64,000 nt of DNA from an uncultured Acetobacteraceae bacterium (lineage in GTDB: Bacteria > Pseudomonadota > Alphaproteobacteria > Acetobacterales > Acetobacteraceae), in contig CAXTJU010000004.1 in the NCBI GenBank assembly GCA_964244655.1, positions 2,516 to 66,515 on the forward strand, given 5' to 3'. Positions 26,559 to 35,742 of the stretch are shown in pieces. A program made the position numbers and the translations under genes. Below the pieces are notes generated by a model. The model made no database searches. It had not been told where the DNA came from and worked only from the letters and a program-made list of their open reading frames with translations. Numbering within the stretch: position 1 is the first letter of the stretch; each line of letters opens with the position of its first letter.

Positions 26559-27623
26559 ATGAGGATCGTGATCTTCGGCCTCGCCGTCAGCTCCTCCTGG
26601 GGCAACGGCCACGCGGCCCTGTGGCGCGGCCTGATCAACGGCCTGCTGGCGGACGGCCACCCGGTGACGTTCTTCGAGCGCGACCAACCCTACTACGCGC
26701 AGAACCGCGACCTCGTGGCGCTGCCCGGCGGCGGCGAGCTGGTCCTCTACCCGGACTGGCCCGCGGCCCTTGCCCCCGCCCGCCGCGCCCTGGCCGGCGC
26801 GGACGTGGCCGTCGTCACCTCCTACTGCCCGGACGCGCTGGAGGCCGCGGCCCTGGTCGGCGACGCCGGCGCCGCGCTGTCCTGCTTCTACGACCTGGAC
26901 ACGCCCGTGACCCTCGCCCGCCAGGCCGCCGGCGAGTCCATCGGCTACATCGGGCCGGACGGGCTGCGCGGCTACGACCTCGTGCTGAGCTACACCGGCG
27001 GCGCCGCGCTGGACGCCCTGCGCCACACCTTCGGGGCGCGCCGGGTCGCGCCGCTCTACGGCTCCGTGGACCCGGCGATGCACCATCCCGTCGCCGGCGC
27101 GGCTCCTCGCGCCCTGCTTTCCTATCTCGGCACCTACGCCGAGGACCGGCAGGCGGCGCTGGAGGCGCTGTTCGTGGAACCCGCCCGCCGCCGCCCCGCC
27201 GACCGGTTCGTCATCGGCGGCGCGCAGTACCCGGCGCAGTTCCCCTGGACGGCCAACACCTGGTTCGTGCAGCACCTGCCGCCCGCCCGGCACCCGGCGT
27301 TTTACTGCTCCTCCCGGCTGACGCTGAACGTGACGCGCGCGGCGATGGCGCGGATGGGCCATTGCCCGTCCGGCCGGCTGTTCGAGGCCGCCGCCTGCGC
27401 CACCCCCATCCTGACCGACAGCTGGGACGGGCTGGAGCAGTTCTTCACCCCGGGCGAGGAAATCCTGGTGGCGCGGAACACGGCGGAGGCCATGGCGGCG
27501 CTCGACGTGTCGGATGCCGAGCTGGACGCCCTCGCCCGGCGTGCGCGGGAGCGCACGCTGGCCGAGCACACCGCCCAGCGCCGGGCGCGGCAGATGGTGG
27601 CGGCGTTCGAGGATGCGGCCTGA
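26559..27623 (+). CDS. CgeB-family glycosyltransferase
   Basis: FGLAVSSSWGNGHA..WRGL, YDLDTPVT, LNVTR, SGRLFEAAAC. Confidence 0.88.
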   Translation: MRIVIFGLAVSSSWGNGHAALWRGLINGLLADGHPVTFFERDQPYYAQNRDLVALPGGGELVLYPDWPAALAPARRALAGADVAVVTSYCPDALEAAALVGDAGAALSCFYDLDTPVTLARQAAGESIGYIGPDGLRGYDLVLSYTGGAALDALRHTFGARRVAPLYGSVDPAMHHPVAGAAPRALLSYLGTYAEDRQAALEALFVEPARRRPADRFVIGGAQYPAQFPWTANTWFVQHLPPARHPAFYCSSRLTLNVTRAAMARMGHCPSGRLFEAAACATPILTDSWDGLEQFFTPGEEILVARNTAEAMAALDVSDAELDALARRARERTLAEHTAQRRARQMVAAFEDAA

Positions 27624-28381
27624 TGTGGGGCATCATCCCCGCCGCTGGCCAGGGCACGCGCATCCAGCCGCTCGCGTTCAGCAAGGAGCTGCTGCCGATC
27701 GGCAGCCGGGTGGACGAGCGCGGCGTCGAGCGGCCCCGCGCGGTCAGCGAGTTCCTGGTCGAGCGCATGGTGCGCGGCGGGGCGGACAAGATCTGCTTCG
27801 TCATCTCGCCCTGGAAGTCCGACATCCTGCAATACTACGGCGGCAGCCTGGGCGACACCGCCTTCGCCTACGTGGTGCAGAACCACGCCGCCGGGCTGTG
27901 CGACGCGATCTTCCGCGCCCTGCCGCTGGTCGGCCCGGACGAGCCGGTGCTGCTCGGGCTGCCGGACACGGTCTGGTTCCCGGTGGATGCGCTGGCTGGC
28001 CTGCCGGACGGCCGGTTGAGCTTCCTGCTGTTCCCGGTGCGCCAGCCGGAGCTGTTCGACGCGGTGCTGCTGGACGCGGCGGGCCGGGTGACGGAGATCG
28101 AGGTGAAGGCCGCCGCCCCGCGCTCGCCCTGGATCTGGGGGGCGTTCAAGCTGCCCGGCGCGCTGCTGCACCAATTGCACGCGCTGTGGCTGCGGCGGGA
28201 GCGGCAGGACGAGTTCATCGGCACGCTGGTCAACGCCTATTTGCGCGAGGGCGGCGAGGCCTGGGGCGTGCGGGGTGGCGAGAGCTACGTCGACGTCGGC
28301 ACGCTGCACGGCTACCGCGAGGCGATGCGCGCGCTGGTGGGACCGCACGAAGGCGCACTCTTGCAGAGGACGGAACCGTGA
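27623..28381 (+). CDS. Sugar-phosphate nucleotidyltransferase (RfbA-like)
   Basis: GIIPAAGQGTR..P...KELLP, GLCDAIF, LPDTVWFP, DVGT; TGATG coupling. Confidence 0.88.
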   Translation: MWGIIPAAGQGTRIQPLAFSKELLPIGSRVDERGVERPRAVSEFLVERMVRGGADKICFVISPWKSDILQYYGGSLGDTAFAYVVQNHAAGLCDAIFRALPLVGPDEPVLLGLPDTVWFPVDALAGLPDGRLSFLLFPVRQPELFDAVLLDAAGRVTEIEVKAAAPRSPWIWGAFKLPGALLHQLHALWLRRERQDEFIGTLVNAYLREGGEAWGVRGGESYVDVGTLHGYREAMRALVGPHEGALLQRTEP

Positions 28382-28383
28382 GC

Positions 28384-33395: not shown

Positions 33396-34733
33396 TCAGG
33401 CGCTGGCGGCACTTTCCGTCGCGGCGTTGCTGCGGCCGATCCCGCTGTAGCGCAGCCCGGCTTCGCGCATCGCCGCCGGGTCGAAGACGTTGCGCAAGTC
33501 CACCACCACGCCATCCTTCAGCAAGGCCGCAAGCCGCTCGGGCGCGATGGCGCGGAACTCGTTCCACTCCGTCACCAGCACCATGGCGTGTGCGCCGTTG
33601 AGCGCGTCGGCAGCATCGCGGCAGAACACCACCGCGTCCGGCAGCAACGGGCGCGCCTGCTCCATGCCTTCGGGATCGAACGCGCGGATGGTCGCACCTT
33701 TCTCCATCAGGCGGTGCACGATCGGCAGGCTGGGCGCATCGCGCATGTCGTCCGTCTCGGGCTTGAACGTCAGCCCCAGCACCGCGATCGTCTTGCCGCG
33801 CACGCTGCCGCCGCACGCGGCGATCACCCTTGCCGCCATCGCCGCCTTGCGCGCCTCGTTCACCGCCACCGTCGCTTCCACCAGGCGGGACGGCGCGCCC
33901 CAATCCTGCGCGATCCGCATCAGCGCCAGCGTGTCCTTGGGAAAGCACGAGCCGCCATAGCCCGGGCCGGGATGCAGGAACTTGCGGCCGATCCGCCCGT
34001 CCAGCCCGATGCCGCGCGCCACGTCGTGCACGTCCGCGCCGACCTTCTCGCAGAGGTCGGCCATCTCGTTGATGAACGTCACCTTCATTGCCAGGAACGA
34101 GTTGGCCGCGTACTTGGTCAGCTCCGCCGTTTCCAGCGCGGTGAACAGGATCGGCGCCTCGATCAGGTACAGCGGACGGTATAGCCGCCGCAGCACCTCG
34201 CGCGCCCGCTCGCTGTCGGTGCCGATCACCACGCGGTCCGGCCGCATGAAGTCCCCGATGGCGCTGCCTTCGCGCAGGAACTCGGGGTTGCTGGCGACGT
34301 CGAACTCCGCGTGCGGCGCGGCCTGCGCCATGATGGCGGCGATGCTGCGGCCCGTGCCCACCGGCACCGTGCTCTTGGTGATGACCACCGCGTAGCCGGT
34401 CAGCGCGCGCGCCACTTGCTCCGCCGCGGCGTTGACGTAGCTGACATCCGCATGGCCGTCGCCGCGCCGGGTCGGCGTGCCGACGGCGATGAACACCGCC
34501 TCCACGCCCGCCACCGCGGCCGCGAGATCGCCGGTGAAGCTCAGCCGGCCGGCCGCGGTGTTCTCGTGCACCAGGCGGTCCAGCCCGGGCTCATAGATCG
34601 GCATGACGCCGTCGAGCAGCAGCGCGAGCTTGGCGGCGTCGCGCTCCACCACGCACACCTCCACGCCGAGGTCGGCGAAGCACGCCCCGGACACGAGGCC
34701 AACGTAGCCGCCGCCGATCATCGCGATCTTCAT
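33396..34733 (-). CDS. ugd: UDP-glucose 6-dehydrogenase
   Basis: GGGYVG, IAVGTP, KSTVP, SNPEFLREG, GYGGSCFPKD. Confidence 0.96.
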   Translation of the reverse strand: MKIAMIGGGYVGLVSGACFADLGVEVCVVERDAAKLALLLDGVMPIYEPGLDRLVHENTAAGRLSFTGDLAAAVAGVEAVFIAVGTPTRRGDGHADVSYVNAAAEQVARALTGYAVVITKSTVPVGTGRSIAAIMAQAAPHAEFDVASNPEFLREGSAIGDFMRPDRVVIGTDSERAREVLRRLYRPLYLIEAPILFTALETAELTKYAANSFLAMKVTFINEMADLCEKVGADVHDVARGIGLDGRIGRKFLHPGPGYGGSCFPKDTLALMRIAQDWGAPSRLVEATVAVNEARKAAMAARVIAACGGSVRGKTIAVLGLTFKPETDDMRDAPSLPIVHRLMEKGATIRAFDPEGMEQARPLLPDAVVFCRDAADALNGAHAMVLVTEWNEFRAIAPERLAALLKDGVVVDLRNVFDPAAMREAGLRYSGIGRSNAATESAASA

Positions 34734-34758
34734 GGGATAATCCTATGCTGGAAAGCCG

Positions 34759-35742
34759 TCATGCCGCGGCGGATTTCGGCACTTCATCCCCCCGTTCGGC
34801 GAGCAGGCGGGCAAAGTACGCGACGGTGCGCTGCAGCCCGTCATCCAGCGCCACCTTCGGCTCCCAACCGAGCGTGCGCCGGGCGAGGGCGATGTCGGGA
34901 CAGCGCTGCGTCGGGTCGTCCTGCGGCAGGGGGCGGTACACGATGGGCGAATCCGAGCCGGTCAGCCGCACGACCCGTTCGGCCAGCTCGCGCACCGGGA
35001 TCTCGTGCGGGTTGCCGAGGTTCACCGGGCCGGTCACCGCATCCGGCGTGCCCATCAGCCGCACGAAGCCTTCCACCAAGTCGCTCACGAAACAGAAGGC
35101 GCGCGTTTGGCTGCCATCGCCGTACAACGTGATCGGCTCGCCGCGCAGCGCCTGCACAATGAAGTTGGACACCACGCGCCCGTCATTCGGATGCATGCGC
35201 GGGCCGTAGGTGTTGAAGATGCGCGCCACCTTGATGCGTGTTTGATGCTGACGGTGGTAGTCGAAGAACAGCGTCTCCGCCGCCCGCTTGCCCTCGTCGT
35301 AGCAGGCGCGCGGGCCGAGCGGGTTGACGTTGCCGCGGTATTCCTCGGTCTGCGGGTGCACCGTGGGGTCGCCGTACACTTCGCTGGTGCTGGCCTGGAA
35401 CACCCGCGCGCCGGTCCGCTTGGCCAGCCCTAGCATGTTGATGGCGCCGATCACGCTGGTCTTGGTGGTCTGCACCGGATCGAACTGGTAGTGGATCGGC
35501 GAGGCCGGGCAGGCCAGGTTATAGATCTCGTCGACCTCCGCGTACAGCGGGAACGTCACGTCGTGGCGCATCGCCTCAAATTGCGGATGGCCCAGCAGGT
35601 GGGCAATGTTGTCTTTGCGGCCGGTAAAGTAGTTGTCCACGCATAGCACGTCGTGCCCCTCGCCGATCAGCCGCTCACACAGATGCGAACCGAGGAAACC
35701 GGCGCCGCCCGTCACCAGCACGCGCTTACGGGTTAGGCTCAT
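34759..35742 (-). CDS. uxs: UDP-glucuronate decarboxylase (UDP-xylose synthase)
   Basis: [54 protein letters not shown]. Confidence 0.93.

Follow-up and report, generated by a model that had tools for sequence, protein, structure and literature searches.

The 64-kb window analyzed here (64,000 nucleotides from a lichen-associated Acetobacteraceae genome) carries seven genes on the plus strand, g1–g7 (26559–32830), which form one unbroken, translationally coupled operon. They encode, in this order, a CgeB-like glycosyltransferase (GT), a nucleotidylyltransferase (NT), a methyltransferase (MT) of the TIGR04290 family, a predicted glycosidase, a PIG-L-type deacetylase, a second GT belonging to family GT4, and a Fem-like tandem-GNAT protein (Table 1). 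The cassette is most likely a short form of a modular pathway of Alphaproteobacteria whose product is a small cytoplasmic glycoside and not an exported polymer. We propose tentatively, with a little less than even confidence, that its product could be a cytoplasmic O-methylated glycosyl-cyclitol, or a similar polyol glycoside, with an optional N-(amino)acylated glucosamine. This proposal draws on sequences, on predicted structures, and on analogies with known pathways. Inositol would probably form the core of such a product.

Genes were called from a frame plot of G+C at third codon positions and by inspection of start codons, the G+C content of the window being ~70%, and families were assigned by scanning the predicted proteins with hidden Markov models (HMMs) at Pfam and TIGRFAM/NCBIfam cutoffs. 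The junctions from g1 to g7 are, in order, TGATG, GTGA (or a 2-nt gap), ATGA, a 17-nt overlap, a 7-nt overlap, and again ATGA. An earlier note on this DNA had described seven tightly coupled genes of these families; all seven calls are correct, and the junctions bear out the coupling. None of the seven proteins contains a hydrophobic 19-residue window above 1.6, and all are predicted to be soluble. A scan of the region for promoters and terminators gave matches at or below the expectation from shuffled sequence. The sequence of the window is present in metagenome runs from lichen or air; a single run contains 97% of the words sampled from it, which traces the DNA to a lichen metagenome.

Related loci were collected by scanning an alignment of the MT over species-representative genomes, which yielded at least 585 relatives, of which the best 80 were kept with 10-kb flanks. 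They come mostly from Acetobacteraceae metagenome-assembled genomes, many of them from lichens, in addition to Roseomonas, Faunimonas, Microvirga, Salinarimonas, Mongoliimonas, and Chthonobacter. Linkage was counted by tblastn of the window proteins against these 80 loci, and recurrent partners were found by clustering all open reading frames (ORFs) within them. The genes g1, g2, g3, and g4 are colinear and on the same strand in 74–78 of the loci, and since this order recurs in so many other genomes, the arrangement is far beyond chance. Taken singly, g1 is present in 78 loci, g2 in 77, g6 in 64, g7 in 63, and g5 in 51. The last of these is cleanly absent from many loci, with g6 found there directly 3' of g4, and g4 itself is missing from four Roseomonas loci. 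The MT and g4 families each comprise at least 8000 clusters at 90% identity, and the MT was found on 133 plasmids. Among the 120 matches listed, identity to the query is 71–96% for the MT and 77–98% for g4, the cassette gene with the strongest conservation. The carriers, among them Sinorhizobium meliloti (pSymB), Rhizobium etli (p42b), and Roseomonas mucosa, are host-associated (lichen, legume, skin).

No exporter, flippase, polymerase, priming transferase, or membrane protein is present among the recurrent neighbor clusters of the 80 loci. The observation of the earlier note that the cassette includes no transporter or polymerase thus holds in the window as well as across its relatives, and its suggestion of a cytoplasmic small-molecule product is strengthened by the exporter-free loci and by the lack of hydrophobic segments in all seven proteins. 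In turn, several enzymes do recur. Inositol-3-phosphate synthase (Ino1) is encoded within 10 kb in 24 of the 80 loci. A histidine phosphatase (HisP) accompanies 33 loci and a HAD phosphatase 29, with one or the other found in 54. Further recurrent partners are a GT9-like gene (40 loci), a second class-I MT (34), and a ROK kinase (nine). All five named Hyphomicrobiales loci share the order Ino1-HisP-g1-g2-g3-g4-g5-g6-g7-MT2, where MT2 is the second MT. In these five loci, and on both Bradyrhizobium plasmids described below, Ino1 is the first gene of the operon, located directly 5' of HisP-g1.

The same enzymes are found in a sister architecture, 'rhizo-twelve', which we take, following TIGRFAMs, to be a computationally defined and uncharacterized cassette marked by the TIGR04295 B12/radical-SAM protein. 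Its composition is seen on plasmids of Azospirillum, Bradyrhizobium, Roseomonas, Paracoccus, Rhizobium, and Sinorhizobium. It includes two short-chain dehydrogenases/reductases (SDRs), sometimes a B12-radical-SAM protein, a GT4, three to four CgeB-like GTs, an MT, and a g4-type 'beta-xylosidase', as well as Ino1, HisP, a Zn-dehydrogenase, and a Gfo/Idh oxidoreductase. The likeness of the window cassette to this type, asserted in the earlier note, is real for the MT (58–69% identical to that of the window), the permuted g4 glycosidase (68–72%), and the g1-type CgeB-like GTs (42–59%). The MT–g4 pair is common to the window and to the clusters of Azospirillum, R. mucosa, Paracoccus yeei, and Bradyrhizobium, at 58–72% identity. 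Additionally, Ino1 and a histidine phosphatase frequently accompany the rhizo-twelve clusters. However, the TIGR04295 proteins of Azospirillum and Bradyrhizobium had no tblastn match anywhere in the window, and only three of the 80 related loci contain homologues. The window has a single CgeB-like GT, g1, and its sole SDR is a canonical UDP-xylose synthase (UXS) encoded on the opposite strand by uxs. It lacks the Zn- and Gfo/Idh-type dehydrogenases, and has g2 and the module of PIG-L, GT4, and Fem-like enzymes. Because the radical-SAM, SDR-pair, and GT-array genes are absent, the window cassette is not itself a rhizo-twelve.

The two architectures meet on the Bradyrhizobium plasmids p195_1 and p195_2, where the gene row Ino1-HisP-g1-g2-g3-g4-phosphopentomutase continues, on the same strand, with a rhizo-twelve module in place of g5–g7; on p195_2 this module ends in a UXS gene. 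The phosphopentomutase-family gene is found directly 3' of the g4 homologue on both plasmids (L086 11688–12893 and L089 8660–9865), and also in L065; this linkage hints that g2 may activate a pentose-1-phosphate. The idea that NT and UXS are strict alternatives in supplying the donor for g1-type GTs was discarded, since p195_2 has both in one cluster. Plasmid pSR-3 of Skermanella rosea, from desert sand (L090 7873–13063), carries g1-g2-PIG-L-GT4-GNAT and a second small GNAT but neither the MT nor g4, which makes methylation and the glycosidase a separable module. Azospirillum has the order Ino1-HisP-MT-glycosidase, and three loci (L068, L076, and L078) have Ino1, HisP, and the core genes without g5–g7. 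As the genes recombine in these blocks, four modules can be distinguished, namely [Ino1+phosphatase], [g1+g2], [g3+g4], and [g5+g6+g7].

Two further features of these plasmid clusters were observed. In Azospirillum, the g4 homologue is followed by a gene for a K+ channel. Terminal-oxidase operons (coxB-ctaD, or cyoABCD with SURF1) adjoin the clusters of R. etli p42b (L081), p195_2 (L089), pSR-3 (L090), and AZO_p5 (L087), and on these four unrelated plasmids a functional link or a shared 'stress island' is possible.

A route can be proposed on this basis, with gene structure, families, folds, motifs, and neighborhood statistics computed here, and with all substrates, the order of steps, and the physiological role inferred from them. 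The g2 enzyme would convert a sugar-1-phosphate to a nucleoside-diphosphate sugar, and g1 would transfer that sugar to an acceptor, which the linkage suggests is often inositol-3-phosphate or inositol, made in many genomes by the operon-encoded Ino1. A phosphatase of the His or HAD type would then act on the g1 product and finish the glycoside, to be O-methylated by g3. In the optional module, g6 would add an N-acetylhexosamine (HexNAc), g5 would remove its N-acetyl group, and g7 would re-acylate the amine so exposed, possibly drawing on aminoacyl-tRNA for an amino acid. Finally, g4 might trim, transglycosylate, or remobilize the product, which may serve as a stress protectant or a cofactor-like metabolite.

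The profile of the g1 family finds in the PDB weak C-terminal matches to the GT4 enzymes BshA, sucrose-phosphate synthase Tll1590, GlgM, and PimB', and by these profiles the family is a divergent GT-B. Reading the acceptor of g1 from them was ruled out, the matches being weak and confined to the GT4 C-terminal domain. CgeB-family enzymes are thought to glycosylate proteins of the Bacillus spore crust, and a role in dormancy had been suggested for the cassette on the ground that CgeB is a spore-maturation family. That suggestion does not survive, as the PF13524 domain is a generic GT-B, by itself uninformative on the acceptor, the carriers are non-sporulating Alphaproteobacteria, and no spore genes are present in the annotated part of the window (~19–44 kb) or among the recurrent neighbor clusters examined in related loci. 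The g2 protein has a GQGTR motif at residue 9, and its best PDB match is a glucose-1-phosphate thymidylyltransferase (1lvw, E 3.7e-11). The possibility that g2 is an inositol-phosphate cytidylyltransferase was rejected, since no specific similarity was found and its best matches are RmlA-type enzymes. The g3 protein belongs to TIGR04290, as had been supposed, with 373.5 bits against a cutoff of 300 over HMM positions 2–226 of 226. It has a class I S-adenosylmethionine-binding motif, DIGCNGG, at residue 63, as well as several Methyltransf_* matches in Pfam, and the solved proteins closest to it are two sugar O-methyltransferases, EvdMO1 and WbdD, together with CmoB.

The g4 protein is the most unusual part of the core. 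Nothing in Pfam rises above threshold, with Glyco_hydro_cc at 19.7 bits falling below its gathering score of 21. The N-terminus of the protein is MIEAAMIWNEPNN. Its AlphaFold2 model (pLDDT 86, pTM 0.87) contains eight beta/alpha units, and Foldseek finds TIM barrels only; these matches are generic (TM ≤0.54), as is expected for a permuted chain. An NEP motif (residues 9–11, with E10) follows strand 1, and an SEVG motif (111–114, with E112) is located on strand 4, three strands later. The glutamates of both motifs are invariant in 28 homologues and are conserved as well in relatives with the canonical order of strands. In an exhaustive search, relatives at 30–40% identity aligned with g4 in a swapped order in 18 cases out of 18, with residues 1–190 of g4 corresponding to ~110–310 of the relatives and residues 194–294 to ~5–120. 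Thus, g4 is a natural circular permutant, in which strands beta4–beta8 precede beta1–beta3.

In the canonical-order relatives, the NEP motif is found at ~119–145 and a TE.G motif ~105 residues further on. Such relatives (P0297, P0303, P0347, and others) are stand-alone proteins of ~310–345 residues, and the canonical-order domain also occurs fused to an SDR epimerase/dehydratase in proteins of ~590–690 residues, for example in R. etli p42b (L081 1443–3482). A profile of the canonical-order relatives, compared with the PDB, gives a full-length match to PslG (E 1.7e-15), followed by GH1 enzymes and GH39 beta-xylosidases, and these relatives reach Glyco_hydro_cc at 36 bits. Artificial re-permutation of g4 brought no improvement over the Pfam threshold, and a phmmer search with the R. 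etli canonical-order domain gave no match. By its sequence and model, g4 is GH39/PslG-like and cytoplasmic, retains both catalytic glutamates, and is predicted to be a glycosidase; the label 'beta-xylosidase' given to it by PGAP and JGI is automatic annotation only. The NEP acid/base and the TE.G nucleophile are common to the g4 superfamily and to PslG and the GH39 enzymes, and PslG is likewise a hydrolase encoded within a biosynthetic operon. However, g4 is permuted, lacks both a signal peptide and a beta-sandwich domain, is only 297 residues long, and remains below the Pfam thresholds.

Among the accessory enzymes, g5 retains the zinc-site motifs HPDD (residue 27) and HPDH (residue 135), and scores 20 bits against the BshB1 equivalog, below the cutoff of 182.5. 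In g6, an EX7E motif is located at residue 260. Its full-length PDB matches are the glucosylsucrose synthase TeGSS (7fg9, E 1e-30) and the UDP-Glc:tetrahydrobiopterin glucosyltransferase BGluT (5zer, E 4e-20), whereas lipid-acceptor GT4 enzymes such as PimA are matched at E 1e-5 only. The nearest solved relatives of g6 therefore act on soluble small molecules, sucrose for TeGSS and tetrahydrobiopterin for BGluT. The AlphaFold2 model of g7 (pLDDT 95.4) is closest in Foldseek to FemX (TM 0.65–0.67), with Sba18/Sbb17 and MprF/aaPGS within TM 0.58–0.67, whereas tandem GNATs that use acetyl-CoA reach TM 0.36–0.48 only, and the canonical acetyl-CoA loop motif Q/R-x-x-G-x-G/A is absent from g7. The nearest folds are all aminoacyl-tRNA-dependent, and judged from its model, g7 itself possibly uses aminoacyl-tRNA. 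Sba18 and Sbb17 aminoacylate the amine of an amino sugar, as is proposed here after the PIG-L step, but g7 matches PF13480 (CelD/BcsL) and not PF02388.

A GT4 HexNAc-transferase and a PIG-L enzyme work as a pair on cyclitols in mycothiol (MshA/MshB), in glycosylphosphatidylinositol (GPI) anchors (PIG-A/PIG-L), and in aminoglycosides (BtrM/BtrD), and steps of GlcNAc transfer and de-N-acetylation analogous to these are found in bacillithiol, GPI anchors, and the paromamine of aminoglycosides. The mycothiol pathway comprises Ino1, the GT4 MshA, the phosphatase MshA2, the PIG-L enzyme MshB, MshC, and the tandem GNAT MshD. A cassette with linked Ino1 resembles it in the supply of a cyclitol phosphate, in the GT4, the phosphatase, and the PIG-L enzyme, and in the subsequent acylation of the amine by a protein with two GNAT domains. 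It differs in that the scores of g6 and g5 fall short of the MshA, BshA, and BshB equivalogs, in that g7 is a PF13480/Fem-like protein and not MshD, and in the presence of an additional GT+NT pair, an O-methyltransferase, and a glycosidase, with Ino1 missing from the window. No ligase of the MshC/BshC type was found among g1–g7 or among the recurrent neighbors examined in the 80 loci. Because the equivalog models failed and there is no ligase, the cassette can be said to work like the mycothiol and bacillithiol systems, but not to be one of them.

Mycothiol, sucrose, and glucosylglycerate are all made by a synthase followed by a phosphatase. A similar logic is found in the mycobacterial clusters for polymethylated polysaccharides, those for methylmannose polysaccharide (MMP; ManT, MeT1, MeT3, and the hydrolase MmpH) and for methylglucose lipopolysaccharide (MGLP), with GpgS and the histidine phosphatase GpgP. 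There, too, one or more GTs, sugar O-methyltransferases, an acyltransferase, and a glycoside hydrolase are cytoplasmic and exporter-free, and a His-phosphatase acts after the first glycosylation. The likeness is one of gene content alone, and since only one or two MTs are present in the cassettes described here, a short product is likelier than a polymethylated polymer. The cyanobacterial pathway to sucrose and glucosylsucrose (sucrose-phosphate synthase, sucrose-phosphate phosphatase, and TeGSS) also comprises a GT-B synthase, a phosphatase, and an extending GT that yield a soluble oligosaccharide, and g6 is a full-length homologue of TeGSS, which extends sucrose, a soluble, stress-induced compatible solute, and is encoded beside sucrose-phosphate synthase (PMC9909042). 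That pathway, however, has no counterpart of the methylation, de-N-acetylation, or N-acylation.

Several observations weigh against a cytoplasmic, inositol-based glycoside. Ino1 is not found within 10 kb in 56 of the 80 loci, and Ino1, the phosphatase, the GT9 gene, and the second MT are all absent from the 64-kb window. The GT9 gene, of the heptosyltransferase family, could point to lipopolysaccharide (LPS) in the loci that carry it. The g6 protein fails both relevant equivalogs, with 31.3 bits for MshA (cutoff 462.5) and 42.2 for BshA (cutoff 273.7), and the sole pointer to HexNAc as its donor is the adjacent PIG-L gene. For g7, the fold matches are at 11–15% identity, a level at which the donor (acyl-CoA or aminoacyl-tRNA) cannot be read from them. 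Where g6 and g7 are retained, about one locus in three has no PIG-L gene, and deacetylation followed by re-acylation cannot, for this reason, be obligatory. A full-text literature search on TIGR04290, TIGR04295, 'rhizo-twelve', and related terms found no relevant paper.

The alternative that survives best, although we consider it unlikely, is a surface-glycan cassette, a reading near to that of the earlier note. In this case, an LPS core, O-antigen, exopolysaccharide, or glycolipid would be decorated with methyl and N-acyl groups and with xylose or uronate supplied by ugd and uxs, and the genes for transport and polymerization would be located elsewhere. The starting point for it is the presence of ugd and uxs 0.6 kb from the end of the operon, which they face, as previously described. 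Both encode genuine enzymes on the minus strand, convergent with the operon and separated from g7 by 566 nt. A UXS-family gene is found beside a g1-type GT and/or the MT in R. etli p42b, S. meliloti pSymB, P. yeei, R. mucosa, and three further Rhizobium plasmids, and g1 paralogues, 42–49% identical, adjoin UXS genes in the rhizo-twelve-type clusters, so that xylose may, judging from these sequences, be relevant to the wider cassette family. The literature on S. meliloti UXS yielded no link to this locus. The GH39-like nature of g4, from a family that includes beta-xylosidases and the Psl-operon enzyme PslG, the GT9-like gene, and a pyruvyl transferase near the P. yeei cluster would also fit a surface glycan.

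The distribution of ugd and uxs, however, argues against their membership in the cassette, which the earlier note had assumed. Linkage of ugd was found in one of the 80 loci, L001, from a sister genome (91% identical), and a close uxs (≥72% identical) in two, L001 (96%) and L049 (72%, at −7 kb); the other four uxs-like matches are SDRs at 27–31% identity. The two genes are therefore largely unlinked to the cassette in other genomes. The window uxs is 70–79% identical to generic bacterial UXS and 54–59% identical to the MT-adjacent UXS clade, located on rhizobial, Paracoccus, and Roseomonas plasmids, and belongs to the generic clade, not to the cassette-associated one. The ugd–uxs pair looks like an ordinary nucleotide-sugar pair adjacent by chance of one lineage. 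It could feed UDP-xylose, yet stands outside the conserved system, and we put the chance that it takes part in the pathway in this window at roughly a third. In addition, no Wzx, Wzy, ABC exporter, priming phosphotransferase, or membrane protein recurs in the related loci, all seven proteins are soluble, with g4, unlike the periplasmic PslG, devoid of a signal peptide, and g6 resembles enzymes with soluble acceptors. As a whole, the earlier interpretation stands for the gene families, the TIGR04290 assignment, and the lack of export genes, and is weakened or unsupported for the ugd/uxs link, for rhizo-twelve in the strict sense, and for dormancy. To it are now added the link to Ino1 and phosphatases, the permuted GH39-like fold of g4, and the Fem-like fold of g7.

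A second alternative, still less likely than a surface glycan, is that the cassette makes a secreted or signaling aminocyclitol-like pseudo-oligosaccharide directed at a host (lichen, legume, skin) or at competitors and released by an unlinked exporter. In the sister plasmid clusters, which belong to symbiosis and accessory replicons, Ino1 stands together with Gfo/Idh/MocA and Zn-dehydrogenases, a B12-radical-SAM protein, and four to five GTs. The succession of GT4 and PIG-L enzymes is the paromamine logic of aminoglycoside synthesis, the fold neighbors Sba18 and Sbb17 of g7 come from streptothricin-type antibiotic pathways, and the host association of carriers would agree with such a role. 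On the other hand, no aminotransferase, resistance gene, or exporter recurs, and both the strong conservation of g4 and the MT and the chromosomal position of the window copy among housekeeping genes fit a physiological role better. We also regard as improbable a special case of the inositol-based product, in which the cassette, together with Ino1 and a phosphatase in the loci where these are linked, would make aminoacyl-GlcN-inositol metabolites of low molecular weight, a hitherto unrecognized alphaproteobacterial family and structural cousins of mycothiol and bacillithiol. There, a Fem-like, tRNA-dependent g7 would replace MshC/BshC, the scaffold would be glycosylated and O-methylated, and g4 would control turnover. 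Glycosylation of a cytoplasmic protein or nucleic acid, the glycan being methylated and edited at its N-acyl group once attached, would agree with the CgeB-type domain of g1, with the inclusion of protein heptosyltransferases in GT9, and with the absence of exporters, but is highly unlikely, as no candidate target gene recurs beside the cassette, the linkage to Ino1 and phosphatases and the small-molecule acceptors of g6 relatives would be left unexplained, and PF13524 by itself is silent on the acceptor.

Table 1. Genes of the cassette and its immediate neighbors (positions in the 64-kb window)
Gene	Position	Strand	Assignment	Length (aa)	Remarks
g1	26559..27623	+	CgeB-like GT-B glycosyltransferase	354	core gene; PF13524 Glyco_trans_1_2, 136.7 bits
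g2	27623..28381	+	RmlA-like sugar-1-phosphate nucleotidylyltransferase	252	core gene; PF00483 NTP_transferase, full length
g3	28384..29142	+	TIGR04290-family S-adenosylmethionine-dependent methyltransferase	252	alternative GTG start 28378
g4	29139..30032	+	circularly permuted GH39/PslG-like (clan GH-A) TIM barrel, predicted glycosidase	297	
g5	30016..30831	+	PIG-L/LmbE-family de-N-acetylase	271	accessory; PF02585, 67.4 bits
g6	30825..31862	+	GT4 glycosyltransferase, glucosylsucrose-synthase/pteridine-glucosyltransferase subgroup	345	PF13692, PF00534, PF13439
g7	31859..32830	+	CelD/BcsL-type tandem-GNAT, Fem-like acyl or aminoacyl transferase	323	PF13480 Acetyltransf_6, 101.9 bits
ugd	33396..34733	-	UDP-glucose 6-dehydrogenase		neighbor, not a conserved cassette member; TIGR03026, 438 bits
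uxs	34759..35754	-	UDP-glucuronate decarboxylase (UDP-xylose synthase), canonical type		neighbor; 431 bits to human UXS1
nhaA	25283..26494	+	Na+/H+ antiporter		64 nt upstream of the operon; PF06965, 445 bits

The wider surroundings of the cassette in the window consist of housekeeping genes (rpsI, hrpB, a gene for an HtrA-like protease, and dnaB), and this copy is chromosomal. The antiporter gene nhaA is found within 3–8 kb of the cassette in 40 of the 80 loci, its side and strand differing between them, and no locus outside the Acetobacteraceae has it. Considered as a functional partner, it was set aside on these grounds, and its adjacency is probably lineage synteny and not a sign of membership in the pathway. 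Just upstream of nhaA, a 491-residue protein encoded on the minus strand (23453–24928) has a C-terminal Hint_2 (intein/hedgehog-like) domain (157 bits). Between g7 and ugd, a possible ORF of 142 residues on the plus strand (32936–33364) has no Pfam match; its N-terminal 60 residues are 86% conserved in L001, and its tail is rich in Lys, Ala, and Pro and resembles histone H1. Elsewhere in the window, a low-GC island (~52% vs ~70%) between an ABC ATPase gene and radA (49994–51100, minus strand) contains an ORF of 283 residues and several short ones, and looks horizontally acquired. The G+C content also falls to 62–64% over ~6 kb (12000–18000) around a tRNA gene (15505–15577), a region that may be a genomic island inserted at the tRNA.

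Computationally, the cassette had already been recognized by way of the TIGR04290 and TIGR04295 models. Its components all come from known superfamilies and are combined in a familiar logic, and the system is therefore not categorically new. What is unusual is its very wide distribution in the absence of a known product, the permuted GH39-like enzyme, and the placement of a Fem-like enzyme after a PIG-L deacetylase. The carriers include the genetically tractable S. meliloti (pSymB), R. etli (p42b), Azospirillum, and Bradyrhizobium, the skin commensal R. mucosa, and many lichen-associated Acetobacteraceae. Cultured carriers of the window-type architecture are Roseomonas rosea DSM 14916 (L049), Faunimonas pinastri (L060), Salinarimonas soli (L066), and Chthonobacter rhizosphaerae (L080), and in S. 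meliloti 1021 the sister cluster is located at ~242–255 kb of pSymB. If the product is indeed a soluble, inositol-based glycoside, it would found a new class of bacterial metabolites that act in stress or in the manner of a cofactor, and functions would follow for a clade of CgeB-like GTs, for the TIGR04290 family, for Fem-like proteins of the CelD/BcsL type, and for a naturally permuted GH-A enzyme.

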